DNA of 64,000 nt from an uncultured delta proteobacterium. Lineage in GTDB: Bacteria; Desulfobacterota; Binatia; Binatales; Binataceae. Made by a program: the position numbers and the translations under genes. How positions within the stretch are numbered: position 1 is the stretch's first letter; every line of letters starts with the position of its first letter. This document shows positions 17,485-39,130 of this stretch, one piece after another. The notes beneath the pieces are model-generated. The model was given only the letters and a program-made list of their open reading frames with translations. It had not been told where the DNA came from and ran no database searches. Where the stretch lies: positions 72,443 to 136,442 of the forward strand of contig CAVRJV010000014.1 of NCBI GenBank assembly GCA_963721485.1. The letters are read 5' to 3'.

Positions 17485-18642
17485 TCAGCCGCGCAGCGCC
17501 GCCTCGAAGTCTTCGATCAAGTCGTCGCTCGATTCGAGACCAACGGACAGACGCACCAGCCCGTCGCCGATTCCTGCCCGCGCGCGCTCAGCCGCCGACA
17601 TTCCTGAGTGCGAAGTCGTCGACGGGCGCGTGATCAGGGTCTCGACGCCGCCGAGGCTCGGCGCGCTGATTGGTATCGTCACGCGATCCATGAAACTCTG
17701 CGCCGCGTCGAGGCCGCCCTCCAACTCGAAACTCAGCACGCCGCCGAAGCCGTCGAACAGCTCGCATGCGCGGAGATGATTCGGGTGGCTTTCGAGTCCG
17801 GGATAGTTCACCCGCGCGACCGCGGCGTGCTGCTCGAGCCATCGCGCGATCTTGAGCGCGCTTTCGTTCTGATGGCGTACGCGCACGCCGAGCGTCTTCA
17901 TCCCGCGATGCAGCAGGAAGCATGCGTGCGGATCGAGCGTGCCGCCGAGATGGTTCAGCGTATGCGTGATGCTTTCGACCAGGTCCGCGCGCCCGATCAC
18001 TGCGCCCGCCACGATGTCGCTGTGGCCGTTGAGGTACTTGGTGCCGCTGTGAAGCGAGAGGTCGAAGCCGATTTCCGCGGGCCGAAAATTAATCGGGCTC
18101 GCGAAAGTATTGTCGATGATCGAGACGAGCCCGTTCTCGGCCGCGAAATCCACGGCCGCTTGCAAGTCGCTCACCTGCAGCAGCGGATTCGACATCGACT
18201 CGACGTAGATGGCCTTGGTGTTGGGACGAATCGCCTCGCGCCACGTGGCGGGCTCGTCGCCGTCGATGAAATCCACCGACAACCCCAGGCGCGGAAACTC
18301 CTCGACGAACAGATCGTGCGTGCCGCCATATACGCAGTCCTGCGCGAGCAGATGCCCACCGCCGGCCAGCACGGTGAGCAGCGCCGCCGATATCGCCGCC
18401 ATCCCGCTGCCCGCGACCAGCGCAGCCTCCGCATTCTCGAGCGCCGCCAGCTTGGCGTGCAGCACCGCGTGATTGGGCGTGTTGTTGAGCCGGATGTAGC
18501 GCAGGTCGTGGTAGTTGGTCTGCCCGGCGTACTCGAAGGTCGAGGATTGGAAGATCGGCATCGAGACCGCGCCGCCGATCAGCGGCTCCGGTTCGCCGGC
18601 ATGAATGAGCTTGGTGTCGAGTCCTTTGATAAGTCGGGCCAT
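17485..18642 (-). CDS. PLP-dependent Cys/Met metabolism enzyme (cystathionine gamma-synthase/lyase family)
   Basis: PIFQSSTF, GSGMAAI, DNTFASP, HSGTKYLNGHSD (PLP Lys), SLGGVETL, RLSVGLE. Confidence 0.93.
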   Translation of the reverse strand: MARLIKGLDTKLIHAGEPEPLIGGAVSMPIFQSSTFEYAGQTNYHDLRYIRLNNTPNHAVLHAKLAALENAEAALVAGSGMAAISAALLTVLAGGGHLLAQDCVYGGTHDLFVEEFPRLGLSVDFIDGDEPATWREAIRPNTKAIYVESMSNPLLQVSDLQAAVDFAAENGLVSIIDNTFASPINFRPAEIGFDLSLHSGTKYLNGHSDIVAGAVIGRADLVESITHTLNHLGGTLDPHACFLLHRGMKTLGVRVRHQNESALKIARWLEQHAAVARVNYPGLESHPNHLRACELFDGFGGVLSFELEGGLDAAQSFMDRVTIPISAPSLGGVETLITRPSTTSHSGMSAAERARAGIGDGLVRLSVGLESSDDLIEDFEAALRG

Positions 18643-18660
18643 GCGACGACATTTATCACT

Positions 18661-18685
18661 CGGCGCGTCAAGGAAAATAGGGCGC
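18661..18685 (-). repeat. Direct repeat A: displaced copy of the membrane-protein gene 3' end (APYFP-stop)
   Basis: cggcgcgtcaaggaaaatagggcgc vs cggtgcgtcagggaaaataggtcgc at 21372-21396, 22/25 identical. Confidence 0.75.
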
Positions 18686-19144
18686 CCGCTCGATTCGCGA
18701 CGGCAAGTCACGCTGTCAAACGTTGTTCTGAATTGAGATTTGGAGTTTGGTTGAGATATTTTCTTTTCTTCCGTTTCCGCAATCAGTTGAGAGCGGTCGA
18801 GTGAAGGAAAGCGGTGCGGGAGAGATCTGATCTGCGATCCGGCGTGTTCACGGGTGGGACGGAACGATGACGGCGAATTGGTGGAGTTCGGCTGCTGGTA
18901 GGGGAGTGGGCTGGTGGGTGTGAGAGGTGAAGTCATTCCGCATATTATGGCATGGCTGGGTGACAACGGTTGTCATGGCCGCTGCCGTACGGCCGAAGTC
19001 GGCTTGATCGCCTTCAGTAGGCGCAGGAGCAATTATTTTCATTTTTTATCTGTTCTTGGATGCGCGATTGCTTTGCCGCCTTCCGAATCGAAACCACTGT
19101 GGCTGCAACTGTCCCGGCGCCAGCGCGCTCGGTGTGCAATGCCG

Positions 19145-20242
19145 TCACGGCAACGGACGCTTCTTCATATCGTTGATCGCTTCCATCAGGTTGACGGTGT
19201 CGTTCACGTCCAGCGTATCGCCGCTGTAGCGAAGCTCAAGAAGCCCTTGCAGATTTGATGGGAGTTTTACTCCTTGCTTCACAATGAGGATAAAGCGACT
19301 CCCATATAGCGCCATGGCCGCACCTATCTCGATAAGAACATCGTCGTTGAGGACGATATGTTCGTTGCCCTCACTATCTACAAGGTGGCGCTCGTCCTCG
19401 ACATGAATGATAGCCGACCCGCACGACCGCATCTCTTCCATAACTTTGGAAGGAACCGGCTGGGAGACAGTCTGTATCTGAACAGATACCACCGCCTCCA
19501 ACTCGCCGAAGGCAAGCAGCTTCTTGACCGGTTCGATAAGCCCTTTGTTTTTGCCGTGGGTTATGAAGACTCTTCTGGCCCGGCCATCTACTACGGGCGC
19601 GGAAGGTAGGGCAGCACCGTTCTTTGTTGATGCGGTCGATTGTTCGTCAGTGTCCTTGTTCGATTCGGGTTCGGCCGGCTCGCTTCCATTCGAGTCGGGA
19701 GTTGTCGTACCGCTGAGGTCTACGTATTTGCGCCCCTTGATTTCTTGTAAGAATCCAACCGCTTCAGCGCCTTCGACTATAAGCTTCAGGACCTCGGCAG
19801 TTCGCTCTCGAGGCACACCGAACTCCATTAGAACATTCTCTCCAATTGAGTCCCTCGGCAGTGAAGCGTTGTCGTATTTCTTGAGAAACTCTCGGATCAC
19901 GCGTGGCCGCAGGAGTGCCTCGCGTTTTGCGGCCTTATCGTCTCCTTCGGTAGTTGGTCTGACTATTCGCATTCCCAGCGAGGAGATTGAGATGGTGTCG
20001 GCATTATAACCTCCTGTTGTTAACCCGTACGCTATCGATGCACCGGTCAACATCCTGAACCCACTGGAGGTCGGTTGTACCTCCAATGCTCTTGCGACTT
20101 GCAACGGCGCAGTCGGCTTGTATCCGTAGTTCTCTCCTATCGATGCGGGCACCCGAATCGCTCTCTTAAGTGAACAGCTCGGAATGTCCACTTGACTGAC
20201 ATACGTTCGCAACTTTTCTACTTTCTTCTTGTCCTTTGGCAT
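19145..20242 (-). CDS. TIR-like nucleotide-binding domain protein (CAP12/Pycsar TIR-like C-terminus) with a helical N-terminal domain
   Basis: RRVFITHGKN...LNDDVLIEIGAAMAL...KLPSNLQG matches the TIR-like family pattern; acidic disordered linker. Confidence 0.82.
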   Translation of the reverse strand: MPKDKKKVEKLRTYVSQVDIPSCSLKRAIRVPASIGENYGYKPTAPLQVARALEVQPTSSGFRMLTGASIAYGLTTGGYNADTISISSLGMRIVRPTTEGDDKAAKREALLRPRVIREFLKKYDNASLPRDSIGENVLMEFGVPRERTAEVLKLIVEGAEAVGFLQEIKGRKYVDLSGTTTPDSNGSEPAEPESNKDTDEQSTASTKNGAALPSAPVVDGRARRVFITHGKNKGLIEPVKKLLAFGELEAVVSVQIQTVSQPVPSKVMEEMRSCGSAIIHVEDERHLVDSEGNEHIVLNDDVLIEIGAAMALYGSRFILIVKQGVKLPSNLQGLLELRYSGDTLDVNDTVNLMEAINDMKKRPLP

Positions 20243-20287
20243 CTGCACTCCGCGGCAGTTTACCCGAATCGACTGCTAGTTCAGTCA

Positions 20288-20316
20288 AATGTAGTCGGAT
20301 TCTGACGCTTGCGCAA
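20288..20316 (-). promoter_or_regulatory. Putative sigma70 promoter of the TIR gene
   Basis: Minus strand TTGCGC-N17-TACATT, ~45 bp upstream of the ATG; TTGCGCAA palindrome overlaps the -35. Confidence 0.55.
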
Positions 20317-20831
20317 TAGGCTCTATTTCCGAGATAAATTAGGTCGCAAGAGCGACAATCCGTATCGCGTGAGGGTAAGTTGTGGCCCACCGTTTCGCAA
20401 TCGCCTACCCGTATCCGGTCGTCGGTGTACGCCGTAGAGATGCGAGCTTGAGCCGAGTCGGCTGGCGCGACTAAGCGCGGGATACACTTCATCAGGCCGA
20501 CCTCGGCGTCGCCCTGAGGACCCGTGTTTGAGACCTTTACGAAGTCCCTCCACTTACGCTTCAAACAGTACAACTCAAACACTAGGGTGAAGTCGCGCTT
20601 TGCTTTCGGTGCAACATTGGGGTATCTGGTGCCGCAACGGTACCTTTGGTTTGTGCTCAGCGTAGTCCAAAAGTCGCAAGAGGTGCTGATCCCGAGCAGA
20701 AGAAATGAGAGTAGTCCGGATTCGTTGTTCCCCTCTTCGACCCCGGTTGAACCGCGATACGGATTTCCATTGTTGAACGCGATCTGATCCTCGCTTTGCT
20801 TCAGTCGCGCAACAAATCGAGGAGCAAGAGT

Positions 20832-20860
20832 TTGCCGGCCGTCAATAAATCTGTTAACTT
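20832..20860 (+). promoter_or_regulatory. Putative sigma70 promoter with extended -10 for the small secreted protein
   Basis: TTGCCG-N17-TAACTT with upstream TG; RBS GGAGGA at 20879. Confidence 0.55.
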
Positions 20861-20889
20861 CCAGTGAAATTCGCATTTGGAGGATATCG

Positions 20890-21159
20890 ATGAAAACGAT
20901 CGTATACGCTCTATTATTGGTGGCGTGGGTCGGAGCTACCAACGCATGGGCTCAACAGCACGATCCGAATCCGAATAAAGACCCAGAAGTGCAGCAGGGT
21001 TACGACGAAAATCAAGAGCAGCATCGCCAGAAAGATACGACCGAGACTTACACGGTTCATAAAACAGGCGAGGGGCACGGCGGCATTCCCGACAGCGGAA
21101 ACTACGATCCTCCGAAGACGAAGGATGATTCCCAAGAGAAGAAAGATAACCCCAATTAA
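20890..21159 (+). CDS. Small secreted, acidic, probably disordered protein (89 aa)
   Basis: Signal peptide MKTIVYALLLVAWVGATNAWA, strong RBS and promoter. Confidence 0.75.
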   Translation: MKTIVYALLLVAWVGATNAWAQQHDPNPNKDPEVQQGYDENQEQHRQKDTTETYTVHKTGEGHGGIPDSGNYDPPKTKDDSQEKKDNPN

Positions 21160-21160
21160 G

Positions 21161-21226
21161 AAACCGTCGGCCGTCGCAATCGACAGTTCGGGCCACGTCT
21201 GGGTGACAAACTTCGGCAACGGTAAG
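21161..21226 (+). pseudogene. NHL/beta-propeller repeat remnant
   Basis: Translates to KPSAVAIDSSGHVWVTNFGNGK, with no start codon. Confidence 0.6.
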
Positions 21227-21338
21227 CGCGCAGGTTTGTGGACGACGTAACGCGTCTGGTCGTCCGGTCTCTGCGAACGTCGTGATCTGATGACCAGCGC
21301 GCGAGCCGCTCTCTACGCCATCACATTCTGGTGACCTA

Positions 21339-21362
21339 GTGGGGCGGGCCGCCGTGCCCGCC
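21339..21362. repeat. REP-like GC hairpin preceded by GTGG at the islet edge
   Basis: GTGG-GGCGGGC-cgccgt-GCCCGCC. Confidence 0.45.
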
Positions 21363-21371
21363 GCCGACATC

Positions 21372-21396
21372 CGGTGCGTCAGGGAAAATAGGTCGC
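21372..21396 (-). repeat. Direct repeat B: current 3' end of the membrane-protein gene (ATYFP-stop)
   Basis: Partner of 18661-18685. Confidence 0.75.
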
Positions 21397-22938
21397 TGCT
21401 GGAGTGCCGTTGGGGGCGGCGACGTTGCCAACTACGGGCGCCACGCCGGGGAGCGCGGCGCGGCCGAAGAGGGCTGCGGTTTGATCGCTGTATAGTAGAT
21501 GCCAGCGCGGGTCTTTTCTGACGAGGTCGGCGCCCTTGGTATCCACGCCCATCAGGATGTAGTCGTGGGGATAGGCGTCGAGGAGTTGTTCCGAGCCGGG
21601 CATGCCGTAGAAGAATTTCGCGTAGTCGCCTTCCTGCTTGTCTGAATAGACCAGTTCGCCGCGCGGATCGATATAAACCTTGAACGCGTCGGATGCGTGC
21701 CAGAGGATGTACGAGCCCCATTCGAATTGCGGCAGGATGTTGCCGTGAAGTTTGCGATCCTGCATGAAGGCGAGCGCGCCCGCCGGCATCGGCTTCCAGG
21801 TTTTCAGGCGATTCGAGAAAGCTCCACCGACGAGTGCGAGAGCGACCGCGCAGATTGCGAGCAGCGCTGCGGGCGGTTCGCGATCGACGACGGGTTCGCG
21901 GGCGGCACGTCGAGCGACCGCGAGGCTCGCATGGCGGGCTAGCGGAATGGCGACGGCGATCACGCCGACCGCGACGTTGCGGGCGGCATAGAAAGCGGCG
22001 GCGATAAAGATTGCGGCGACTGCTGTCATCGGTGCGTCGTCGAGGTCGGGGGCGAGCGCGACCGCCGCGACAAATCCGGCGAACATCAGCATCGGCGCAA
22101 CGTACTGGAGCAACTCCTTCGGGTCGGTGCGCCAATTCGAGAGCATCATTGTAGTTAGCGGCACCCAGTCGGCGATGACCTGCCGGATGAGTGGGTCGCC
22201 GACCGAATGCGCGACGCCGGTCCAGAGGCCGATGCCGAAGGGATTGATGAGAGTAGCGAGCGCGCATCCGAATGTGATCAATGCGAGCTTCCATGCAGAG
22301 GACAGGCGGCCGGCGTCGCCGAACCATCCCAAGGCGAACATGACCGCGGTGGCGATACCCATCGCGCCGAGGCCGACGATGTAGCCGCCGTGAAGGTTTG
22401 CCCACAATGTGAACATCGGGAGCAGCGGCCACAGCGTCGCGTCGCGGCGGTAGACCTCGAGCGCGAGCGCCATCATGATGACGGCGATCATCATGAAGGT
22501 GAAGAGCTGCGGCCGAAATTGCATCTGGGTCGAGATGGCGACGGCGCTGAGAATCAGCGTGAGGCGTTGCACTCGCGGCGTCGCGTCACTGCAGGAAATG
22601 CCGATCGCCAATGCGACTATCAGGATGCTCGAGCAGATCAGCTTCAGCAGCTTGAGACCGAAGACGCCGAGATGCGCGTAGAAGAAGGCGAGCGCCACCT
22701 GCGACAGCCATTCGTGATTGTGCCAGGGCATGTTGGCGGCGGCGTAAGAGTAGGTGTCGAAGCGCGGGATGTGTCCGGTGCGCAGCGTGGTCGCGCCGGT
22801 GAGCATGTGGATCCAGAGATCCGGCTCGGCGAAGTTGTCGGCCGTGGCGAGCGCGATCGACAGGATCACCGTCCATCGCGAGGCCGAGAGCAGCGAATAG
22901 CGTGGCAGCTCAGGCTGCTGCAAGTCGCGCGAGACTCC
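21379..22938 (-). CDS. Polytopic membrane protein, possibly GT-C-like (start approximate)
   Basis: EPDLWIH...G, NHEWLSQV, RPQLFTF, LWANLHGG, many TM segments, C-terminal soluble domain (YIDPR). Confidence 0.75.
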   Translation of the reverse strand, partial: GVSRDLQQPELPRYSLLSASRWTVILSIALATADNFAEPDLWIHMLTGATTLRTGHIPRFDTYSYAAANMPWHNHEWLSQVALAFFYAHLGVFGLKLLKLICSSILIVALAIGISCSDATPRVQRLTLILSAVAISTQMQFRPQLFTFMMIAVIMMALALEVYRRDATLWPLLPMFTLWANLHGGYIVGLGAMGIATAVMFALGWFGDAGRLSSAWKLALITFGCALATLINPFGIGLWTGVAHSVGDPLIRQVIADWVPLTTMMLSNWRTDPKELLQYVAPMLMFAGFVAAVALAPDLDDAPMTAVAAIFIAAAFYAARNVAVGVIAVAIPLARHASLAVARRAAREPVVDREPPAALLAICAVALALVGGAFSNRLKTWKPMPAGALAFMQDRKLHGNILPQFEWGSYILWHASDAFKVYIDPRGELVYSDKQEGDYAKFFYGMPGSEQLLDAYPHDYILMGVDTKGADLVRKDPRWHLLYSDQTAALFGRAALPGVAPVVGNVAAPNGTPAATYFP

Positions 22939-23893
22939 GCGGTCGCATCGCCGCTTGCACGATCGGAATGGAAACAACCAGAATCGAGGCGCCCGCTATC
23001 ACATCGACAAAGTAATGATGCCCCGCGAAGGGAGTAGCTATCAGCATTAGTACATTCACAATCGCAACAGGCAGAAAGGTTCGCAGCGGCGGCCGATGTA
23101 CATACACCAGCAGAATAGCCATTACGGCATGGCACGACGGAAACGCTACGATACCGTTCAGGTCGGCCAGCGTGAATTTCGTCAAAGTGCCGTTGCGGAT
23201 CGATACGAGCACCGCCGACCACGTTGGCATCCCTCCGATTGTGTAAGGCCCAAGAGCCGGAAAAGGACCAGACAGAGTTACTGAAACCAGCATCGCGAAC
23301 ATTCCAATCCACAGCAGTTCGCGGTTTCGGTCGCTGCGCTTGATCAACGCGAAATATCCGATCGACGTGAAAACCTCGATCATCATGCTGTTGTAACAAT
23401 GTTCGAGCGTGTATCGGATCAACCATCTCGAGGTAGTGATCCAGTCGTAGTCCGCGCTCCAGTTGAGTCCGAGCGCCGCATCCATCCGCGCAAACTGGAC
23501 GTCCCGCAGCGGCATCCGAAGCGTCGCCACCACGTAACTGTAGATGACAAGCGCGACCGCGAACGCGATCCACAGCGCACAGTAGTGCGCCGCCTCGGCC
23601 ACCTGCCGCGCGCGTCCCGTGAACTCGACCAGGAAGCCGAACGCCGCGAACACCGCGACTCCCTTTACCGCGGGCATGAGTCCGCCAATGTCGAAGCCCG
23701 CGTGCCTTGCCCAAAGCCAGTCCGTCGCGGCAAGGATCAGGATGACTGCCCATGCTCTCAGTATGTAGTCGCGCTCGTCGAGAAATTTCGACGAGCGCGC
23801 GTTCGTGGTGACAGGATTGCGCGGCGCTTGTGCGAGCGCCTCCGAATGGCCCGCAACGGGCATCGACGAATCGATATCGATACTTTTGTCCAA
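22910..23893 (-). CDS. PAP2-family (PAP2_3/IPC-synthase-like) membrane phosphotransferase/phosphatase
   Basis: FPALGP, AFPSCHA, GHHYFVDVIAG catalytic motifs. Confidence 0.85.
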   Translation of the reverse strand: MDKSIDIDSSMPVAGHSEALAQAPRNPVTTNARSSKFLDERDYILRAWAVILILAATDWLWARHAGFDIGGLMPAVKGVAVFAAFGFLVEFTGRARQVAEAAHYCALWIAFAVALVIYSYVVATLRMPLRDVQFARMDAALGLNWSADYDWITTSRWLIRYTLEHCYNSMMIEVFTSIGYFALIKRSDRNRELLWIGMFAMLVSVTLSGPFPALGPYTIGGMPTWSAVLVSIRNGTLTKFTLADLNGIVAFPSCHAVMAILLVYVHRPPLRTFLPVAIVNVLMLIATPFAGHHYFVDVIAGASILVVSIPIVQAAMRPRSLARLAAA

Positions 23894-24081
23894 ATGAGTC
23901 CCGCCCCGGTGCCTCTGAGAGCACTAACTATGCCAGAATCGCCGCCGCTGAAAAGCCAACCGAACTTTGACCCCGCGCAATTTCAACGCCGGTCGATCTC
24001 ATTACGTGTTGCATCGACGCAACAACTTCGGCTGCGCGGCGCGAGCTTTCACCGCCTCCATCGCGCCGGTAATCTAGTCGG

Positions 24082-25231
24082 GTGAAAGCTCTCGTAATCG
24101 GCGGCGGTATAATCGGCAGCGCAGTCGCATGGCGCCTTGCCTCGGAAGGGGTCCAGGTCACTGTCTTCGAGCGTGGGCGGCTCGGGCAGGAAGCGTCGTG
24201 GGCGGCGGCCGGATTAATCGGGCCGCAAGCCGAGGCGCATGAGCCGGGCGCGTTCTTCGACCTTGCGCTCGCAGGCAAGCGCGTCTTTCGACTGCGATAG
24301 TCGATCGTCTCACATTGGAGAGCGGCGTCGATCCTGAGTACGATCAACACGGCGTACTCTACGTTGCGTTCGACGACGCAGCCCGCGCCGAGTTGCAGTC
24401 GCGTGCGCGATGGCAGCGCGCGGCCGGCGGCGAGGTCGAGGAGTTGTCGCCGCGCGAGGCATTCAAGCTCGGCGCCGGTGCTGTCGGAAAAAATTATTTT
24501 CGCGCTGCATATGCCCAACAACCGGCGCGTCGAAAATCGCAAATTGACACTTGCCTATATCAACGCCGCTACCAACGCCGGCGCCGAGTTCCGCGAAGGG
24601 CGCCCGCATCGAATTCGATCGCAGTCAGCGGCGGGCGCGCGACCGGGCTGCGGATGGCGGATGGCGCGATAGAAACGCGGCGACGTCATCATCAACGCGG
24701 CCGGCGCGTGGGCCGGAGATATTCGCGGGCTCGAAGAGGATCGCATCCATGTCTACCCGGTGCGCGGGCAAATCTTTGCTTCGACGCGCGCCCGGGGCTG
24801 GTCGGCCCGTCGCTGTTTCTCGAATCGCCGGAATATTGGTGCCGCGGCGCGACGGGCGAATCCTGGCCGGCTCGATATTCGAGGAAGCGGGCTTCAACAA
24901 GTCGGTCACAATCGACGGGATGGAACGAATCCTGCGCGCGGTGCGCGCGATGGTGCCGTCGATCGCGTCGATACCATTTCGCGAAGCGTGGGCCGGACTG
25001 CGACCCGCCAGCGACGACCTGCTGCCGGTGCTCGGGCCGTCGCCGACGGTCGCCAACGTGATGTACGCGGCCGGACACTTTCGCAGCGGAATCCTGTTGT
25101 CGGCGTTAACGGGAGAAGTGATCGCCGACCTGGTCAAAGGCCGCACGCCGTCGATCGATCTCGCGCCGTTTTCGCCCGCCCGCTTCCGCAACGGCACGGC
25201 GCACGCGGTCAAACTCGCCGACATGATATGA
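24082..25231 (+). CDS. thiO: Glycine oxidase (frameshifted)
   Basis: IGGGIIG, EASWAAAGLI, YPVRGQI, AWAGLRP, GHFRSGILLS. Confidence 0.88.
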
Positions 25232-25588
25232 GCAACGATCGCGCTCGGGCTGATTCGCGACTTGTTCTTCCGCGCGAAGATCGACGCGGTCGCGGCGGCC
25301 GTCGGCGCCGAGGTCGAGTACGCGTCGTCGATCGAGGCCGCAGCAGCGCGATGCGCCGAATTGAAACCCTCGATCATATTCACCGATCTCTCCGATGCGG
25401 CATTCCCTGCGCTCGAAACGCTGAAAAGATCCGCGCCGCCGCGCCCGAGCGCGCGCGTGATCGGATTCGCCTCGCATATAGATCTGAAACCGTTGAAAGC
25501 TGCCCGCGACGCCGGCTACGAGCTGACGTTGTCGCGCAGCGAATTCACCACGCAGCTTCCGGCGTTACTGAAAGGATCTTCCGCCTGA
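25228..25588 (+). CDS. Small receiver-like (CheY-fold) protein
   Basis: DLFFRAKI...PSIIFTDL...VIGFASHID...ARDAG; 5' frameshift. Confidence 0.6.
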
Positions 25589-25639
25589 TATCATAGTCGA
25601 GCGACAATCGCCCGCGATGGTAAGGTGGTCGGCGAGGTA

Positions 25640-26444
25640 ATGCGGATTGCGCAACGCGGTCGGGCCCGCTGACTACGCTGGAGAAGGTCATTCTCGCGCT
25701 CGTGATGACGTGGGCAGCGGGCTTCGTCGATCTGGTCGGCTTCGTCTCGCTCTACGGGCTGTACACCTCGAACATGACCGGCAACACGGTCGGGATGGCG
25801 CGTCAGATATCGCGAGCTGGACTTGGCCGGCGTCGTGCGGCATGGATGGCCGATTGTGACGTTCGTCTTCGGCCTGATGCTGGGGTCGTTCATCTACGAA
25901 GCGGAGAAGCGGCGCAGAATCCAGGTCCCGTTTCCGCCGGCGATCGGTCTCGAGGCGCTGCTGATCGGCATCTTCATCGCGGCGGCGAATCGGGAGCCAT
26001 TTCAAAGCCGAGATTCCGCCGCAGCCGGCCGGCAAATTTTTCGTGATGGTCGCGTTGCTCGCGGTTGCCATGGGCATCCAGAACGTGGTCATCAGAAAGG
26101 TCGGCGGCATCAACGTGTACACAACGTTCGTGACCGGAACGCTGGTGAAGTTCGCCGAGAGCCTGTCGGAGTATCTGTTCTGGCTGCGCGATCGAACCCG
26201 CGGCCGGTTCCGCTCTCGCATCCTCAAAGTGCTCCGGATTTCGCCGCGCATCGCCGCGCTCCAGCAGGCCTCGCTGACATTCGGGTCTGTGGATGCAATC
26301 TACCTGACAGGCGCGGTAAGCGGCGGATTTTCGATCCAGCGATTCGCCCTGCTTGGGATGCTTGCGCCGTTCGCGCTGCTGGCGGCGATCGCGCTGTACG
26401 GGGCGTTCCGCCCGTTCTTCGCACTGTCGAGCAAAGAGTGGTGA
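25640..26444 (+). CDS. YoaK/DUF1275 membrane protein (frameshifted)
   Basis: AGFVDLVGF, SNMTGNT, AMGIQN, TTFVTGT. Confidence 0.85.
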
Positions 26445-26483
26445 AATTTTTTTCCACCCTCGCGCGCGGGTATATATTTTTCC

Positions 26484-29400
26484 ATGCCCACCGCGCTCGA
26501 CGACTTCCATCCTGCGGTTCGCGCCTGGTTCGAGCGGCGCTTCGAGGCGCCGTCGCGCGCGCAGGAGCTCGGATGGCCTGTTATCGGCGCCGCCAACGCC
26601 GCGGGCTTCGACGTGCTGCTGTGCGCGCCGACCGGCAGCGGCAAGACGCTCGCCGCGTTCATGTGGGCGATCAACGGCCTCGTGCTCGATGCCGCGAGCG
26701 ACCGATCTTCGCGACGAAGTCTCGGTGCTGTATGTTTCGCCGCTGAAGGCGCTGGCCAACGACATCCGCCTCAATCTCGAGGAGCCGCTGCAAGGCGTGC
26801 GCGACGTCGGCGCCGAGACGGGCCTCGATCTTTCGCGCATCCGCGCCGGCCTGCGCACCGGCGACACGTCGGCCAGCGAGCGCACGCGCGATGCTGCGGC
26901 GGCCGCCGCATATTCTGGTCACGACGCCGGAGTCGCTGTTCATCCTGCTGACCTCGCCGAGGTTCCGCGAGAAGCTCGCCGCCGTGCGCCACGTGATCGT
27001 CGATGAGTTCCACGCGCTGGCCGGCAACAAGCGCGGCGCCCATCTGGCGCTGACGCTGGAGCGGCTTGAGCGCATGGTGACGAGCCGCGGGAATGCGCGG
27101 CCGAATCGAATCGGACTGTCGGCGACGCTGAATCCGATCGAAAAGCTGGCGGGGTTTCTGGCCGGCGATGATGTCGCGCGCGACGGCACACGCGATCGCC
27201 GCGGCCGGTGAAAATAGTTCGCGCCGACGATCGTGTGCGCGACGATGGATCTGCAGGTGATCGCGCCCGGGTCCGGAGCTGGGGCCGCTCGCGACCCATC
27301 CGCATTGGGAAGCGATGTACGACGAGGTCGCGCGAGCTGATCGGCGAGCATCGCACGACGCTGGTCTTCACGCTGAGCCGCCGCACGGCCGAGCGGGTCG
27401 CGCTGAATCTGCAGAAGCGGCTCGGCACGGACGCGGTGATGGCGCATCATGGGAGCCTCGCGCGCAGCCGAGCGCTTGCTGGCCGAGCAGCGCCTCAAGC
27501 GCGGCGAGCTGAAGGCGATCGTCGCGACCGCGTCACTCGAACTCGGCATCGACGTTGGCGCGGTCGAGCTCGGTCTGCCAGCTCGATTCGCCGAAATCGA
27601 TCTCGGCCGCGATTCAGCGGATCGGCCGCTCGGGCCACAGCCTCGGCGCGACGCCGAAGGGGCGCTTCTTCGCGCTGACGACCGACGATCTGCTCGAATG
27701 CGGCGCGGCGGTGCGCGCGATTCGCGCCGGGCATCTCGACGAAGTGGAAATTCCGACGGGATGCGTCGACATCGCGGCGCAGCAAATCGTCGCGATCGCC
27801 GCCGAGGAAGACGAAATCTCGGAGGCCGAGCTGCTGCGCTTGCTCCGCAGCGCGTACAACTTCGGCGATCTCGACGCGGCCAAACTGCGGCATCTGCTCG
27901 AACAGATGGCCGCCGAGATACCCCGAACGAATCATGGGTGCGGCGCCGAAAATCTTTTTCGATCGCGTCGACGCGCGCGTCCGCCCGCGCCGGTCCGCGC
28001 GGATCTGTCGGCGATCACCTCGGGCGGAACGATTCCCGAAGCCGGCAACTACGACGTCGTGATCGAGTCGGAGGGCCGCAAGATCGGCGACGTCGAGGAG
28101 GACTTCGCGCAGGAGTCGTCGCGCGGCGACGTGTTCTCGCTCGGCTCGATGCCGTGGCAGATCCAGCGAATCTCGCGCGGGCGCCTGATGGTCGAGCCGG
28201 CGCCCGGGATGGCGCCGACGCTGCCGTTCTGGCAGACCGAGGCGGGCGGCCGATCGCCGGCGCTGTCGGCGGAAATCTGCGAGCTGCGTCACGAGATCTG
28301 GAACCGCCTCGAGCGCAACGAAGCGCCCGAAGAATGGCTGATGACCGAATGCGCGATGAGCGAGCGCGCGGCGACGCAGGCCGCCGACTACGTGCGCCGC
28401 GGGGTCGAGGCGCTCGGCGCGATTCCCGACGAGAAGACGGTGGTCGTCGAGCGCTTCTTCGACGGCCTCGGCGGCACGCAAATCGTCATCCACACGCCGT
28501 TCGGAATTCGGCTCAATCGCGGGCTGGGGCTCGCGATTCGCAAGCGCCTGTGCCAGTCGTTCGATTTCGAAATCCAGGCCTCGGCGATCGACGACGGCGT
28601 GCTGCTCGCGCTGAACTCGCGCCACAGCTTTCCGCTCGAGAGTCTCTTCAGCGTGCTGAGGTCGCGCAATGCGCGCGACGTGCTGATCCAGGCGTTGCTG
28701 GCGGCGCCGATGTTCGAAGTGCGCTTTCGCCATGTCGCGACGCGCGCGCTCGCCGTGATGCGTTCGTCGCGCGGCAAGCAGCGTGCCGGCCTGGATTCAG
28801 CGACTGCGCTCGCAGGAACTGTTGGCGTCGATTTTCCCCGGCCAGCAGGCATGCTTCGAGAACCGGCCGGGCGCAATCGAGCTGCCCGATCATTTTGTCG
28901 TCGACGAGACGATTCGCGAATGCCTCGAGGAGTCGACCGACCTGCCGCGCACGGTACGGCTGCTCGAAGGAATCGAGAGCGGGGCGATTCGTACCGTCGC
29001 CGTCGACGGGATCGCGCCGTCGGTGTTTGCGCATCGCCTGCTGCTCGCGTGGGATTACTCGTTCCTCGACGACGGCGAGCGCGCCAATCGCCGATCGCGC
29101 ACGGTCACGATGAATCGCGGGATGGCCGAGGACGTGTTCCGCAAGGAGGACCTGTCGGATCTGCTCTCGGCGGACGCCGTCGAGAGCGTCGTCGCAGAAG
29201 TGACGGGGCGCGCGGCCGGACGCAAGCCACGATCGCGCGACGAGCTGTACGAACTGATTCGCGCGCATGGATCGATGACGCTGGCCGAGGTCGAAGAGCG
29301 GGCGGGCGACGGCGCGCGCGCGATGATCGCGGAGCTGGATGCCGAGGGCAGAATCGCGCGCGTCGCGCTGAATGGCGAATCAGTTGAGAGAATCATCGCG

Positions 29401-30963
29401 AACGAGGATCAACCGATCTTCGATGCGGCATATACGAAAGTCGGTGACGCCGATGCGGCGCGGGCCGAACTCGTGCGGCGCGCGATGAAGACTTGCGGGC
29501 CGACAACTGCCGTCGAGATTGCGGCGCGATTGCATTTGAAAGAGTCGGATATCGTGCAGAGTCTCGCGGCGTTGGAAGGGCAGGGCGCAATTTTTCAAGG
29601 CCACTTCACGCGCTCGGACACGGTCCAGTGGTGCGACCGCTACAACCTTGAGCGGATACATCGAATGACGCTGGCGCGCGTGCGGGCAGAGATCGAGCCG
29701 TGCGCCGATCACGAGTACGCGGCATTTCGGCTGCGATGGATGCACGTCGGCGGCACCGAGCTTCAGGCCGATCAGACAGGAGTCGCTGCAGTGCTCGAGC
29801 AGCTTTCAGGAATCGCGGCGACGCCCGAGATTTGGGAGCATGCGATTCTGCCGGCGCGAATTGCGGGCTATCGGCCCGAGATGCTCGACCTCGTATGCAT
29901 GAGCGGGCAGATGAAGTGGGTCGCGTTACCCGGTGAGACGGTCGAAAGCGCGCCCGCGGCGAACATTCCGTCGCGCGTAACGTTCGTACCTCGCAAGGCG
30001 CAACCTGTTTGTTCCGCGCAACGATGCCGCCACCGAAACTGCGAAAGAGCAAGCGGTGCGGGAGGCTCTGGGAGCCGCCGGCGCGCAATATCTTGACGAG
30101 CTTGCGGAGCGCGCGAACGTTTCCGAGCGCGACGCGCTGTCGGCGCTGTGGCGGATGGCGGCGGCGGGGCGCGTCAGCAACGACAACTTTGCGCCGCTCA
30201 GGATGTTCGCCGACGACCGCGGCGCAGAGCGCGCGCTCGAATCCGTCGCGCGCCGCCCATCGACTCGCCACACGCCGCGGTCCGCGCGCGCCTGAAGTCG
30301 AGTCTCGCCGGCCGCTGGTCGCTGATCCAGACAAGTGAAGGCGCCGACGACGCGCGGGAACTCGCGCTCAAGTTACTCGAACGGCACGGAATTCTCGCGC
30401 GCGAGATGCTCGGCTTCGAATCGACGCATATCTCGTGGAGCGAAATCTCGTTCGAGCTGCGGCGGCTGGAATACGGCGGGACCATTCGCCGCGGATGGTT
30501 CGTGCGATCGCTGTCGGGCGAGCAATACGCGCTGCCCGAAGCCGTCGAGATGCTGCGCGCCGCGCGGAATCTGATCCCCGCGCGCGAAAAGCCGTTAGCG
30601 CTGAGCGCGGTCGATCCTGCCAATCCGTACGGCGTCGTGATTCCCGGATGCGGTATCGCGCGCGAGGCGGGCAACGTCGTGGTGCTGCGCGCCGGCCGCG
30701 TCGTCGCGGGATTCCAGGGACGCGCGATGATCAGCGGCGGCGATGGCGAGGTGGACGACGAGAGTTTCGGCGCGGCGGTCGCGGCGCTGATGACGCTGAA
30801 GCCACGTATCGCGATCGATTCGATCGACGGCGTGGCTGCGCTCGAATCGCCGCGGGTGGGAATCCTGGCCGCGATGCGGTTCCATTCCGATGGCCGCTCG
30901 CTGATCTTCGACGGCTTGCACGGGCCGGCGCCCTCGCGATCGCGGCAGGCGAACTTAAAGTGA
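26484..30963 (+). CDS. lhr: Large Lhr-family SF2 helicase (multiple frameshifts)
   Basis: [56 protein letters not shown]-terminal RRGWFV...GEQYALP and [10 protein letters not shown]. Confidence 0.92.
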
Positions 30964-31439
30964 TGCATGAAGAAAACGCGGCGAACCTCGCGGGCCTGCA
31001 GGCGATTATCGACCGCAGCACGAGGACTGCAACTCCGGCTGTCGCCGATTCGGTCGCCTATCCTGAGCGCCAGATGACGGCGGCGGAATTCGTCGAGTTC
31101 TGGAGCGGCGTCAGGCTGGTCGCGATGGCGACGGTCGGCGCGCAGGGGCAACCGCATCTTGCGCCGGTGCATGCGCAGATTGCCGGCACGAGTCTCAAGC
31201 TGGTCATCTACGACAACACGATCCGGCGTGCCGATCTCGCGCGTAATCCGCGCGTGGGATTCACCACCTGGAATGACGTGGGCGCAGCGGTGATCGTTTA
31301 TGGACGGGCGCGCGAAGTGACGGGGTCGATTCGCGATGCGCGGGCGGGGCAGAGCGGCAAGCCGCGCCGCGTGATCGAGATCGAAGTTGCGCTTACCAGA
31401 ATCTACGCGATGCGCGCGCCGCAGAGATCATCGAGTTAG
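30963..31439 (+). CDS. Pyridoxamine 5'-phosphate oxidase-like (split barrel) protein
   Basis: MATVGAQGQPHLAPV...LARNPRV...VYGRA; TGATG overlap with the lhr stop. Confidence 0.7.
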   Translation: MHEENAANLAGLQAIIDRSTRTATPAVADSVAYPERQMTAAEFVEFWSGVRLVAMATVGAQGQPHLAPVHAQIAGTSLKLVIYDNTIRRADLARNPRVGFTTWNDVGAAVIVYGRAREVTGSIRDARAGQSGKPRRVIEIEVALTRIYAMRAPQRSSS

Positions 31440-31572
31440 CCAGTTGAATCGGCGCGCTCGCGCGCTATTCTGATCGCATAACAAATTAAATCGGATTGGC
31501 AGGCGCGTCGGGTTTCGGAATCCGCGTCCCCATCCGCCACCGCAATCGCATCTGGAGGCTAGGGCTCTTTCA

Positions 31573-34347
<2,775 letters not shown>

Positions 34348-34357
34348 ACGGGCGCGC

Positions 34358-34666
34358 CTACTGCATGTGACTACCGGCGGCGCCGGACATGGTCGAAGCG
34401 CTGGACGCGGCGCCGGCCGCCGGGGCGGTAGACTTCAGCGCGGGGTCGTCGCTCGCGACGCACTTGTAGAACGGCTGCAGTTTCTTCAGTTGCGCCTTAC
34501 AGCCATTTTCGGTCTTGAGCGTTTTGAATTTGATCCAATCCGACATCGGCGCCGTGGTATTCATCTTGTAATCGCCCGACGCATCCTTCACCGGCGGAAA
34601 AACCGGCGGCGGCAGCATCAGGTACCAGCTCATCAACACCATCGCAGTCGCATAACACTTTCGCAT
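34358..34666 (-). CDS. Small secreted protein with WYLMxPP...W...C...CxxSDDP motif
   Basis: Hydrophobic N-terminus, two mature-region Cys, low-complexity tail. Confidence 0.7.
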   Translation of the reverse strand: MRKCYATAMVLMSWYLMLPPPVFPPVKDASGDYKMNTTAPMSDWIKFKTLKTENGCKAQLKKLQPFYKCVASDDPALKSTAPAAGAASSASTMSGAAGSHMQ

Positions 34667-34718
34667 CCCCGATCAGTTACCGATTTTTTCGGCTGAATGC
34701 GATAGGCGCGAGATCGAT

Positions 34719-34761
34719 CTATGCCGGCTGCGGGGCGGCTGCGTCCAGGCGCACCGACGCG
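34719..34761 (-). repeat. Direct repeat C: displaced original 3' end of the phosphotransferase gene (ASVRLDAAAPQPA-TAG)
   Basis: 33/43 identical to 37992-38034; differences almost all synonymous. Confidence 0.9.
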
Positions 34762-34775
34762 TGAGTTCAGTCGGC

Positions 34776-34794
34776 TAAGCCGCAGTCCGGCTTA
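34776..34794 (-). terminator. Hairpin at the stop of the DHA2 gene
   Basis: TAAGCCG-cagtc-CGGCTTA. Confidence 0.45.
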
Positions 34795-36400
34795 CTCCCC
34801 GCCGATATGGGCGCCCTTCTCCGCTACCGAGCGGCGCATGAGCAGAACGAACAACACCAACATCAAGCCGACCGCAGCCGAAAAGGAGAAGACGTCAAAG
34901 TAGGCCAGTGACGAGGCCTGCTGAGCTCGCGACTGGTCGAGAACGCCCAACGCCATTTGATGTGACAATACAGCATCGCCGTTGTGCTGCAGGAAAAACG
35001 CCTGGCCCCGCGTCAACAGATTGTTGACCGGAGGGTTCAGGGGATCGAGGCTTTCATTCAGCCGCAGGGTATGAAACTGCTCGCGTCGTTCCTGAATAAT
35101 TTGAGCGACCGAAGTTCCCACGCTGCCGCCTTCGTTGCGCAGCAGAGCGAGCAATCCAACGGCGGCGCCGCGGATCTCCTTCGGTAGATAGATAAACGCT
35201 GCCACGTTAAGGGGCGCGAACAGCATCGACAACCCCGCGATGACCACCACCCTCGGCCACACCACCTGCCACGGACTGATATCGAGGTTGAGGAGAGCCA
35301 TCCAGTAGCTTCCCAGCGCCATCGTGAGTAGTCCGCCCGCCATCAGGTATCGGGCATCGACTCCGCGAGATAGCAGGGCGCCGACGACAACGAGCATGAT
35401 GATCGCGAAGATCCCTGATGGCGATAGAACCAAACCCGAAGTGGTGGCGTCGTAGCCAAAAAGTGACTGCAGCAAGGCGGGAAGCGAAATGGTGTTGGCG
35501 TAGAGCACTCCGTAAGCGCAGAAGATAATGACGCAGCAGATGCCAAAGTTTCGGTCGGCCATCGTCCGGAGCGCGACCAGTGGATTGCGCAGGTGCAATT
35601 CGCGATAGATCAAGCCGCCGAGGCCGAGCGAAGAACAGGATCAACAGCCCCTGCACGCGATAGAACGGATCGCCGAGCCAGTCCCACTGCTGCCCCTTGC
35701 TCAGCATGACCTCCCAGCAAACCATCGTCACAGCTAGCAGACAGAGGCCGAGCACATCGAAGGGTTCGCGTCGATTGCGACTCCTGGCCCGTTCAGCTTG
35801 GAGATATTCCGGATCTTCGACCAGCGCGTGGCACATCAAATAGGCCAACAGGCCGACCGGCACGTTCAGATAGAAGATCCAGCGCCAGCCGTAGTTGTCG
35901 GTGATATAGCCGCCGAGCGTTGGCCCGACAACCGGCGCGAGCAGTGCCGCCATCCCAAAGATCGTCATCGCCTGGCCTTGTTTCTCTTGCGGGAACGCAT
36001 CCAGCAGCACGGCCTGGCTGGAGGGTTGGAGACCACCGCCGGCCACACCCTGAAGCGCTCGAGATGCGATTATGAAGCCAAGGCTTCCGGCCATCCCGCA
36101 CAACGCGGACGCCAACGTAAAAATGGCTATCGAGGCCAGGAAATAGTTTCGCCTGCCCAGCCGCAGCGCGAGCCATCCGGAAATCGGCAGGATGATCGCA
36201 TTGGATGCGAGGTAAGTGGTGATGACCCACTCGCTGTCGACATTGGCAGCCGACAAGCCGCCGGCAATGTAACGCAAGGCAACATTCGCGATGGTGGTAT
36301 CCAGAACCTCCATGAAGGTCGGGATTACCACCGCAACCGCTATCAGCCAGGGATTGACCGATCGCCTCGCGAGCGGAACCTGGAGCGCTGCGGCACTCAT
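34792..36400 (-). CDS. emrB: DHA2 family MFS efflux permease, EmrB-like (frameshift ~35630)
   Basis: FMEVLDTTIANVAL, WVITTYL, GPTLGGYITDNYGWRWIFYLNVPVG, RNEGGSVG. Confidence 0.9.
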
Positions 36401-37905
36401 TGAGGGCAGGGGCAGAAACGGGACCAGTCGCGGATACTGAGGCTTGAAGCATCTTGCCGGCGTTCGGACCGGTAGGCGTCTCGTGGATGTACACGTACGG
36501 AGTGACCGATAGCCCGATGAACAGTGGAGCGACGTCAGGATCGTAGTTGGTCAATTCGATTCGCACCGGCAGCCGCTGCACAACCTTGACGAAGTTTCCG
36601 GTCGCATTCTCGGCCGGCAAAAGCGCCAGCGTAGATCCGGTTCCCATCGTGAATCCGGAAACGCGACCCTGAAAGTGCCGGTGACTGCCGTACATGTCGA
36701 CGTCGAGCTCGACCGGTTGTCCGATGCGCAGATTCGCCAGTTGCGTCTCCTTGAAGTTGGCGTCGACCCAAATATCGGTGAGAGATCGCAACGCCATCAG
36801 CCCCTGCCCGGCGATAACCTGATCGCCCGGGTTGACGTTGCGACGCGTCACGACACCGTCGATGTCGGCGACGACATCGCAATAGGAAAGGTTCAGCTTG
36901 GCTTGATCGAGATTGGCTTGGGCCTCATTCAACTTGGCCTCAGCCTGTTTGACGTCGGGTGCATTACTTGGAAATCTCATCGAAGATCGCATCGATATTG
37001 CCGGACGAGTCGCGCTTGTAGAACTCTGCGAGCATCTCGTCGGGAGACTCATTGAATGAATGAAAAGACCCGAGCTCGGCCGCAGTCTGCATGAGTCGCT
37101 CCTGGGCAACCTTGACCGCTGAATAAGTTTGGTCGAGATTCGCGGGGATGCCGCTCAGGTCATCGCCGTTCTTGGGTGTGGGTGGCAGCCCAAGTTCAGC
37201 GCGAACCTGCGCGACATCATGCTGAGCCTTCTGTTGCTGTGCCTGAGCTACCGAAAAGGCTTCCTGGAACGAATCGAACTCCTGTTTTGATATAACCTGC
37301 TGTTGGTATAGCTGCTGCTCCCGCCCGTAGTCGGCCTGGGCCTTGATGAGGGTGGCATTCGCGGCTTGAAGAGCGTCTACTTTGGAGTGCAGGTCGGCGA
37401 CCTGGTTGTTGAGGTTGTGCATCGCATTTGCCAGATCGAACCGTTGGCTGCGCGCCAAACTCTCAAGGCCCCGAACTTTCGCTTGTGCTGTGACAATGCC
37501 GGCCTGCGCGAGCGACAGCGCAGCTTGCGCGATATCGACCTTGACCTGGTACGGCTCCTTGTCAAGCTGCACAAGCAGCGCGCCCTTCCGCACCCGATTG
37601 TTGTCGTCCACCAGCACGCGCACGACTTGACCAGGCACCCGCGGCGCCACAAACGTCACGTGTCCGTTAACGTAGGCGTCGTCTGTTGACTCTGTTCTGA
37701 AGGCAGTGATGGCCCAGGGGATGGCCTCGTATAGCGCCAAAAGGACAAGCACACCGCCGGCGATCCACATCCACAGATGGCCGCCTTTGAGGCTGCTTCC
37801 CGGTTGGGGCTTGCGCGATTGGCGCATCGGCCTCGGCGTCGGTGCAGATGGCGCCGGTTCGTGGAGGGATTTGCCAGCGGACTCAGCTGAGTTTCCATCA
37901 GGCAT
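36397..37905 (-). CDS. emrA: HlyD/EmrA-family membrane fusion protein with long coiled coil (frameshift ~36965)
   Basis: STDDAYVNGH, WVDANFKETQL, PAENATGNFVKVVQRLPVRI. Confidence 0.9.
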
Positions 37906-37991
37906 TGGCTCGATCCTCCGTTAATTCACAACCGCAAGGCAACTGTACGATGTCCACGTTGCCCTGGCCGCAGAGCCGTTAACGTACGACC

Positions 37992-38034
37992 TCAGGCGGG
38001 CTGCGGCGACGCAGCGTCCAGGCGGACTGACGCG
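37992..38034 (-). repeat. Direct repeat D: replacement 3' end now used by the phosphotransferase gene (ASVRLDAASPQPA-TGA)
   Basis: Partner of 34719-34761. Confidence 0.9.
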
Positions 38035-39130
38035 CCGCTTTTGCGCGTCGCGTAGCGGCTGAGCAGCCGCACGACCGCGGGCGTGACTTCGTCGATCGCC
38101 TCGCGGCGGAAGCCGACGACCTCCGGGCCGCGCGCGCGCATCATGCCCATCATCGAGAGCCGCAGCAGCGCCGCGACCGCCTGGCAGTAGCGGAAGCGCT
38201 CGAAGTCCATCGGCGCCATCGCGTGGTAGAGCGGGATGTACAGCGCCGCGAAGCTGCGCGCGCAGCCCGTTGCCGACGAGGTTGTCGCGCATCCATCGCG
38301 GCTTCTCGAGCGCCGAGGACGACAGGATCACCGCCGTCATCGCGGCGTCGAGATGGCGATCGCCGACGTCGGTATTGACCCAATCGATCACGCCGGTCAC
38401 GCGCACTCCATCCACCACCACGTTCTGCGGATGATAGTCCATGTGCACCAGCGAATCCGGGCTGCGGCGGAATTTGGGCGCGCGCTCGGTGACGAGATTA
38501 AGCGCCTCGCGCAGGCCGGGCAGCGGGCCGTGTCTCGACGCGATTGGCGATTATCGCGAGCACGCGATCGAGCAGCGGCGAGCCGGCGCTCGGCGGCACC
38601 GATCGGGCGCATAGGCGCGCGGAATCTCGCGCAGGCCGGCGCTGCGCCGGATCGAATTTGTGGAGCTTCGATTGCGCGCGCACGAAGCGAGAAAAATCCC
38701 AGCGAGAAAGTTTTGAACGCGCTCGGAAAACTGCGCGTCGGCGAACAGCGGCCCGCCTGCGAGGCGCTGCATGATCAGAAACGGCGCGCCGAGGGCGCTG
38801 TGATCGGCCTCGAAGGCGTAGGGTCGCGGGACGCGGATAGCGCGCGGCGAACAGTCGATCGATCGTCAGTGTTCTCGCGCGCGCCCTTGGCGTCGGCGAG
38901 CGGAGCCCTGGTAGAAGCGCAGCACCATCGGCTACGCCGACCGGGATCTGCGGCGAAGCGACTTCGACGGCGCTGCGAGCGTGAATTCGAAGACCGTGGT
39001 CTCCCATCCGCTGGCAAGGACGCTCAAGCGCGCAACGCGGCGCGCCGAGATAAGTCGGCGAGGCGTTGCTCGATATCGGCGGGTCGAGCATCAGAAGGCG
39101 CGGGCAGAGAGTCCGCGCGAATCGCAGCGT
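37992..39130 (-). CDS. APH/choline-kinase-like phosphotransferase (heavily frameshifted; start approximate)
   Basis: SGWETTVF, HMDYHPQNV Brenner motif, GVIDW, GDRHLDAA. Confidence 0.75.

Follow-up and report, generated by a model that had tools for sequence, protein, structure and literature searches.

Two small accessory islets in a 64-kb window of the genome of an uncultured soil bacterium (the window being the whole stretch of DNA analyzed here, G000:C14:72443-136442) are insertions that lie directly behind a coding gene, and each is closed at its far side by a displaced, diverged copy of that gene's end, which we refer to as a scar. We found that this pattern is general in the source assembly (G000; 4.64 Mb, 14 contigs, 63% complete) and in its genus: at least seven protein-gene sites in G000, together with a hotspot at the first window site that we followed through 47 genus genomes, have one and the same architecture, with no recombinase at the sites checked. 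The organism is known only from metagenome bins, as are its relatives, which are named Candidatus Binatus sp. or uncultured delta proteobacterium. A plausible explanation, which we favor tentatively, is a homology-anchored insertion-duplication, in which incoming DNA would bring a foreign copy of a gene end and integrate through homology at that copy and an illegitimate joint elsewhere.

At site 1, a 25-nt direct repeat with three mismatches (18661-18685 versus 21372-21396; 88% identity) encloses islet 1, which occupies 2.69 kb (18686..21371), is absent in part of the genus, and is low in G+C (52-54%, versus ∼63% in its surroundings). The right-hand repeat copy (21372..21396, minus strand) is the functional one; judged by its sequence and by comparison of the repeats, it holds the real end of a 532-aa membrane-protein gene (21379..22977, minus strand) that is conserved across the genus, matches no Pfam family, and terminates in YFP plus a stop codon within the repeat. 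The left-hand copy (18661..18685, minus strand) is the scar and consists of displaced last codons of the same gene, its stop, and the start of the spacer. It lies ∼20 nt upstream of the start of a gene for a Cys/Met-metabolism pyridoxal phosphate (PLP) enzyme (17485..18642, minus strand; PF01053, E = 8.5e-125), whose ATG at 18642 agrees with the congener alignment, and it runs on into native spacer known from congener empty sites. Between the two copies is a defence-like gene for a 367-aa TIR-domain protein (19145..20248, minus strand), which matches PF10137 (CAP12/PycTIR TIR domain, E = 3.9e-16) and, in PADLOC, PDC-S35 (4e-8) and a TIR effector (1e-7).

Comparison with the genus reveals both the empty form of site 1 and a variety of occupied forms. 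In 21 of the 47 genomes, G024 among them, the sequence is continuous across the junction, and where a congener has the two flanking genes side by side, its sequence can be aligned with either border of islet 1, the alignments overlapping by 21 to 25 nt, which corresponds to a single repeat copy. Inserts of 0.6 to 5.3 kb are present on one contig in G000, G003, G007, G016, G051, and G054, and across a contig break in G045. We regard site 1, with these seven alleles, as a hotspot. Every one of these inserts is flanked by copies of one common unit, made up of the last 5 to 8 codons and stop of the 532-aa gene plus the ∼40-nt intergenic spacer, to which G007 adds ∼60 nt from the 5' end of the downstream gene.

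The cargos differ among the alleles, as do the flanking repeats. Besides the TIR gene between ∼25-nt repeats in G000, there are RHS- and NHL-repeat proteins in G003 (61-nt repeats), the candidate defence pair PDC-M61A/B in G007 (∼120 nt; L014:2238-5430, E = 1.6e-66 and 7.5e-143), DinB in G016 (44 nt), and a BNR-repeat protein in G051 (∼26 nt). G054 and G045 carry TetR, a methyltransferase, and DinB, with an additional HEAT-repeat protein in G054, and both have three copies of the unit, forming small arrays. Some joints are common to G003 and G007 and others to G016 and G054, and the sequences suggest about three or four independent events. None of the scanned cargo frames in the six other genomes matches a recombinase family in Pfam, and a search of the 47 genomes for the core of the unit outside site 1 gave only a few matches with two mismatches and no attP-like extra copy. 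With PDC-M61A/B in G007 and the TIR gene in G000, the site-1 slot acts as a small defence hotspot. We note two further observations at this locus. The BNR-repeat gene of G051 (L044:1355-2990) is enclosed by a second hairpin repeat in inverted orientation, of which one copy adjoins the scar and the other is ∼80 nt away from the functional repeat, and resembles a gene held between two REP-like (repetitive extragenic palindromic) hairpins. At G058:C15:143500-149000 (L046) there are two tandem 3' halves of the 532-aa gene, each following the unit and ∼100-150 nt of the 5' end of the Cys/Met gene, the remainder of which is absent from the locus.

Site 2 lies behind an APH-like phosphotransferase (kinase) gene that is split over several frames (37992..38900, minus strand, upper end approximate; PF01636 in frame 37921..38448; the frame ends at 37992; congener orthologues 84-86%). 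Its 39-nt direct repeat (34723-34761 versus 37996-38034, 82% identity, family D11) extends to the stop codon at 37992-37994. The functional copy (37992..38034, minus strand) comprises this stop and the last 13 codons of the APH-like gene, as seen from the sequence and congener comparison, and the scar (34720..34761, minus strand), recognized from the repeat and the same comparison, is the displaced version of those 13 codons with its stop mutated. The intervening islet 2 (34762..37991; 3.23 kb) is missing from four of the five genomes examined (G003, G007, G016, and G021), in which the flanks abut with a 43- to 44-nt overlap; the fifth, G018, has ∼3.9 kb of other sequence there. At the joint there is a 4-nt overlap, CGCG, seen against one comparator.

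Islet 2 encodes an efflux pump module, consisting of an MFS transporter gene in two frames (34792..36550, minus strand; PF07690 in frames 34795-35640 and 35210-36550) and a HlyD-type membrane-fusion gene, also in two frames (35796..37920, minus strand; PF16576, PF00529, PF13437, PF13533). The module is single-copy in G000 and is found at a different locus in each of G003, G007, G016, and G018, with 89-93% identity versus 84-91% for the site-2 flanks. No repeats flanking those four copies were found by strict self-BLAST, and a relaxed comparison of the flanks gave chance-level matches only. In G018, the last codons of the MFS gene together with native downstream sequence recur ∼480 nt behind the MFS stop, forming a scar like those at the two window sites. 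A further HlyD-type gene (window 39024-39698), immediately upstream of the APH-like one, has 71 nt at 70% identity in common with the HlyD gene of the islet (repeat family D1), so that the pump was inserted next to an efflux component already in residence. At G003:C17:1-9860 (L023), the pump module stands side by side with an APH-like gene (75% related) and with segments that have their homologues in a mobile stretch of G000 (C2:141-146 kb); several of these modules travel together in a larger accessory island. The downstream neighbor of site 2 is a 102-aa open frame (34358..34666, minus strand) with coding-like G+C at third positions and no Pfam match, which is conserved beside the empty site in congeners.

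The congener empty sites with a single repeat copy confirm the claim of an earlier note, made from the window alone, that both islets are real insertions directly after a gene and bounded by a diverged copy of its end. The target sequences of sites 1 and 2 are unrelated, as that note had also stated. Its description of the duplicate as the terminal codons of the gene is accurate at site 2 and incomplete at site 1, where spacer sequence is included (and in G007 part of the next gene); the duplication is not strictly a 3'-end feature.

Neither window repeat is statistically significant alone. We scanned 2503 coding-like open reading frame (ORF) ends in G000 for ungapped matches, with a score cut-off of 16, and found matches scoring at least 16 downstream of 62 ends, versus 42 upstream and 32 in reverse-complement controls; the two window repeats score 16 and 18. 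We take them to be real because they coincide with the indel boundaries. When the matches at or above the cut-off were sorted, short repeats touching the stop codon numbered 18 downstream, versus 7 upstream and 5 in the reverse complement, and several of the control matches are dispersed repeats or low-complexity protein repeats. Eleven candidate protein-gene sites were compared with relatives (C3-66548 and C3+271352 stayed outside this comparison), and seven are simple insertions with empty sites in congeners. The genome-wide scar count that the earlier note had proposed thus rises above its controls. The excess of direct over inverted repeats is not itself a scar count: low-copy repeat pairs 300 to 6000 nt apart number 301 direct and 26 inverted (134 and 23 short singletons after clustering), and most of the direct pairs are within-protein repeats, dispersed families, or paralogues.

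The seven validated sites include the two in the window (sites 1 and 2) and five elsewhere in G000. Site 3, at msrA on C11, has 199-nt repeats around a 1.14-kb APH-like cassette and is empty in all five relatives compared. At site 4, on C1 behind an alpha/beta hydrolase gene, repeats of 32 to 45 nt enclose a HepT/MNT toxin-antitoxin pair; the site is empty in G003, G044, G049, and G021, and the insert is shared with G007, G016, and others. Site 5 (C14:281k, a TPR gene; 56-nt repeats) carries a methyltransferase and an unknown gene and is empty in 5/5 relatives, and site 6 (C14:516k, dnaG; exact 23-nt repeats) carries a glycosyltransferase and is empty with a 21-nt overlap in three of five relatives and nearly empty in the other two. 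Site 7 (C3:557k) has a 0.63-kb insert between repeats of 24 to 27 nt and is empty in 4 of 12 relatives. No motif shared among the three best-defined repeat units was seen by eye, no motif program having been run.

Four candidates were rejected as simple insertions. At C14-538538 the indel is real, yet the repeat lies inside the conserved flank; at C4-79262 all five relatives vary across the region and none has an empty site; C6-124264 has an insertion-sequence-like gene context and a small dispersed repeat; and C2-146914 is part of a larger mobile segment. On the same contig as the third of these, G000:C6:122926-123021 (L031:2427-2522) is an 85- to 95-nt dispersed element with 21 to 48 matches listed per genome in five congeners, at 80-93% identity.

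The msrA site provides evidence on the origin of the repeat copies. Its APH-like cassette is 91-99% identical to copies at varied loci in 17 of 46 other genomes, from which we conclude that it arrived at msrA recently, and the msrA repeats that flank it are only 88% alike over their 199 nt. The spacer behind the functional msrA copy matches none of 20 congeners, and it is the spacer behind the scar that matches them; one gene-end copy, with its spacer, therefore came in with the cargo. The evidence for a foreign repeat copy comes from the msrA site only. The joint between cargo and scar falls inside GATCGT, a 6-mer common to msrA and to the native continuation of the cassette in G018 and G007 (two comparators), which marks it as an illegitimate, microhomology-mediated event. 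Within 1.5 kb of the cassette in G018 (two copies), G007, and G016 there are no direct repeats. In three other genomes (G006:C1:17285-19270, G059:C4:1563224-1565211, and G051:C27:5572-7560), the cassette is interrupted near the 5' end of its gene by ∼0.92 kb flanked by a 41-nt duplication (query 1380-1420), an insertion-duplication at a 5' end.

No integrase, transposase, or tRNA is associated with either window islet, in agreement with the earlier note. We detected no recombinase or transposase Pfam families in 75 stop-to-stop frames (at least 45 aa) of the two islets and no tRNA genes in the 64-kb window, and none of the nine PF00589 matches in G000 is in the window or at the first six validated sites (the seventh was outside this check). 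For serine recombinases, the search was confined to open frames scanned with Pfam and did not extend to the whole genome. At the C1 hotspot, the inserts in 10 further genomes encode alpha-amylase, TetR, or membrane proteins and no recombinases. As to transposon hallmarks, there is no transposase family, no terminal inverted repeats are listed at the islet ends, and the duplications (21 to 199 nt) vary between events; REP hairpins at some junctions belong to dispersed families. No attC-like or dif-like sites were seen by eye at islet ends, an attC model not having been run. The earlier note had also suggested looking for competence genes and recombinases; G000 encodes ComEC, Ku, and one RAYT-like Y1 transposase, which indicates capacity only, and ∼7 tyrosine-recombinase loci, none of them at the six sites checked.

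Both islets are insertions into short intergenic slots between co-oriented conserved genes, and we propose that they came in on DNA on which the cargo already lay beside a homologous, diverged copy of the end of the upstream gene. The imported gene-end copy would have paired with the resident gene end, and the other end of the incoming DNA would have been joined to the resident gene at an internal point, between a few and ∼60 codons ahead of the stop of that gene. As a result, the gene would now end in the imported copy, with the resident end left behind the cargo as a scar. This could occur through a single homologous crossover of a circularized fragment (a Campbell-type insertion-duplication), or, for a linear fragment, through one joint made by homology and another by microhomology, that is, homology-facilitated illegitimate recombination (HFIR); an element-encoded recombinase would be required in neither case. 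Repeated rounds at one slot could build small cassette arrays separated by scars, and survivors may straddle stop codons because selection would retain intact flanking genes. We favor such a recombinase-independent route because there are at least seven unrelated targets, repeat length varies at a single site, and no recombinase is found at the sites, and also because no attP-like copy of the site-1 unit occurs elsewhere, one repeat copy is foreign, and one joint lies in microhomology.

Several observations weigh against this route. A donor arrangement, with the cargo beside the orthologous gene and no scar, was found for none of the sites, and HFIR in experiments mostly gives replacements or deletions of recipient DNA, rather than duplications. 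At msrA, the two repeat copies, when compared position by position with their counterparts in 20 congeners, give a mixed pattern with no clean switch point, and the sliding-window divergence ratio upstream of the repeat is 1.0-1.17 near the repeat versus 0.8-1.0 further right, with no clear step. At site 1, the unit copies in the 47 genomes all share a core of ∼18 nt, as an attachment-site core would, and in three or four distinct alleles the start of the scar is confined to a range of 5 to 8 codons ahead of the stop, where random illegitimate joints should scatter more. In G018, one of the APH-like cassette copies directly adjoins what appear by eye, from a motif typical of these enzymes, to be the C-terminal codons of a tyrosine recombinase, and lies in a larger island with a large serine recombinase. 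Finally, G000 contains six tRNA 3'-end repeat pairs (tRNA-Pro, C1:292073-293585; Met, C2:57446-58915; Gly, C14:683845-685057; Ser, C14:916735-921944; Ser, C6:84043-86526; and Val, C14:1032467-1035818, all from a repeat-pair scan), and all six consist of one intact tRNA gene and a fragment 1.2 to 5.2 kb downstream, an arrangement that is the classical footprint of site-specific integrases. The tRNA-Val islet, alone among the six, holds a broken PF00589 frame (C14:1032641-1032826), which shows that elements carrying an integrase can be reduced to small islets in G000; the other five have no integrase traces at E of 0.001 or better (PF00589), which raises the odds of the same origin for the protein-gene islets.

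These observations make it quite possible that the islets are instead remnants or integrase-less satellites of site-specific integrative elements, with the tyrosine recombinase deleted or acting in trans, the repeats representing attL and attR, and the arrays arising by tandem accretion as in cis-mobilizable elements (CIMEs). Genomic islands and CIME remnants have direct repeats that duplicate a gene's 3' end, leave the gene intact, carry accessory cargo, and accrete in tandem, and in all of these respects the islets are like them; the architecture is textbook, G000 has its own tRNA examples and tyrosine-recombinase loci, G054 and G045 have their three unit copies, and the cargo (defence, toxin-antitoxin, pump, glycosyltransferase) is typical of islands. 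The association of the G018 cassette with recombinase codons and an island points the same way. However, no recombinase gene or remnant is present in the six G000 protein-gene islets checked, in the six other site-1 alleles, or in the C1 hotspot inserts, and no protein-gene site proved to be a remnant of a known integrase-bearing element. The islets are also small (0.6 to 5.3 kb), no attP-bearing element was found for them, and their seven or more targets would need as many specificities. Repeats that range from ∼25 to ∼120 nt at one site, with no extra-site copy of the unit in 47 genomes, also count against such elements, as do the pump and APH-like cassettes that occur elsewhere without such repeats and the microhomology at the cassette-msrA joint. 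The earlier note's proposal of a 3'-end-replacement mechanism has thus stood in part: the architecture recurs without a recombinase, we infer the route itself, and the six tRNA genes with the same architecture keep decayed elements a serious rival.

A third explanation is that both repeat copies are resident and arose by duplication during replication or break repair, either by template switching at microhomologies or by capture at a long staggered break through Ku/LigD end joining. The microhomology at msrA, the variable repeat lengths, and the Ku gene of G000 are in keeping with this. Nonetheless, we consider it improbable, as the msrA repeats are 12% apart even though copies of the cargo elsewhere match it at 95-99% identity, and the foreign spacer behind the functional msrA copy is unlike a recent duplication of resident sequence. 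It is very unlikely that the repeats are chance similarities and the islets ordinary hotspot turnover by homologous recombination in flanking core genes; the scores of 16 and 18 are within the control range, in which 32 to 42 of the 2503 ORF ends reach 16, but at both window sites the repeats match the indel boundaries with a tolerance of only a few nucleotides, and this agreement is also seen for site 1 in five further genomes and at five further loci of G000.

The assembly itself is of modest base-level quality. In the window, the Lhr helicase, aconitase, MFS, HlyD, and APH-like genes are split between frames according to the open frames and Pfam matches; the Lhr-type helicase (27.5-31.0 kb) and the aconitase (31.5-34.2 kb; together window 27555-34213) occupy two to three frames each. 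Because housekeeping genes are split too, the splits look like indel or base-calling errors of a long-read bin rather than pseudogenes or decay. Such errors, with 63% completeness in 14 contigs, lend a little color to the idea that the islets are artefacts of strain mixtures or mis-joins, yet this is hardly tenable, given that the repeats are diverged rather than collapsed copies, that the same architecture occurs in the independent assemblies G003, G007, G016, G051, and G054, and that a 240-nt short-read contig from run X4 agrees with 21293-21532 at every position and so spans the junction on the right of islet 1. The short-read contigs were short, of low depth, and from one study, and they leave the left junction of islet 1 uncovered, which speaks neither for nor against the assembly. 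Run X4 is perhaps from the window's own source sample, in which case it is not independent support, and the recurrence in other assemblies is better support for the assembly than this thin read evidence.

The remainder of islet 1 is a composite of several layers. A 258-aa open frame of uncertain coding status (20166..20942, minus strand) has no Pfam or PADLOC match, and an 89-aa open frame (20890..21159, plus strand) has no family match and an N-terminus that is signal-peptide-like by eye. These are followed by a fragment of an NHL-repeat gene (21160..21230, plus strand), which appears to be a remnant of earlier cargo, as it gives a weak PF01436 match in frame 20894-21247 and DNA matches to NHL-repeat genes on contig C11. 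A hairpin-bearing segment (21234..21330) is 86-89% identical to parts of the site-1 inserts of G045 and G054, where it stands beside their gene-end copy, and has copies at other congener loci. At the right end is a REP-type palindrome (21338..21368) of a dispersed family with many exact or near-exact copies in G000 and congeners. The same family also flanks the sole Y1-transposase (RAYT-like) locus of G000 (C11:443102-443329, within C11:442870-443476), and this transposase with its flanking REP copies looks like a REPtron-like arrangement.

The processes that we propose have precedents. HFIR has been documented in laboratory transformation and conjugation of a few species (PMC3240628, PMC2884548), and short repeats border 10-18% of the small variable segments of three species (PMC2884548). 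As in HFIR and circular insertion-duplication, the islets would combine one homologous anchor with one microhomology joint at unrelated targets, with no element-encoded recombinase; HFIR is not known, however, to produce gene-end scars at housekeeping genes repeatedly in nature. We regard the displacement of Rhs C-terminal tips and of type VI secretion system (T6SS) effector-immunity modules as the closest natural analogue. In the displacement arrays of these systems, for which HFIR was proposed as the mechanism, an incoming 3' part recombines within a conserved upstream stretch of the Rhs/CDI (contact-dependent inhibition) or T6SS gene and the old 3' part shifts downstream, building arrays; what is displaced there is a toxin tip or an immunity gene that functions, and the toxin gene's conserved core serves as the anchor (PMC5361080). 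The islets, by contrast, are anchored in the last 6 to 60 codons of housekeeping genes that are unrelated to one another (membrane protein, kinase, msrA, hydrolase, TPR protein, dnaG); what has been displaced is a scar without function, and the cargo has no relation to the gene that provides the anchor. Integron arrays and Xer-dif elements are also similar in having small, promoter-poor, co-oriented cassettes with short separators and no recombinase inside the cassette, whereas the separators in the islets are copies of the local target sequence that differ from site to site. The earlier note knew of no described system of this kind. The process has forerunners in HFIR and in the Rhs and T6SS displacements (PMC5361080); the anchors, the dead scars, and the unrelated cargo differ from these, although our literature search was aimed at HFIR and not at gene-end scars, and we do not claim that the pattern has never been published.

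Small islets without mobility genes make up much of bacterial strain variation and their origin is poorly known; here, the joints can be read. What sets the islets apart from the known systems is the use of housekeeping-gene ends as anchors, with a dead scar and unrelated cargo, and the recurrence of this arrangement across the genome of a member of an uncultured phylum. If the islets are decayed integrase elements, the result would be an ordinary one, yet would still map integration sites in such a phylum. A broader reading, which we think rather doubtful, is that Candidatus Binatus, and perhaps other bacteria too, would regularly gain accessory cassettes, defence systems among them, from DNA of diverged lineages without a dedicated recombinase, with scars separating the cassettes of integron-like arrays, and that the integrase-free tRNA islets result from the same process, tRNA genes being the best-conserved anchors. 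If the homology-anchored route is true, it would provide a general means by which a lineage with few classical mobile elements gains genes for defence, toxin-antitoxin systems, and efflux, and the gene-end scars would constitute a genome-wide record of past acquisitions.

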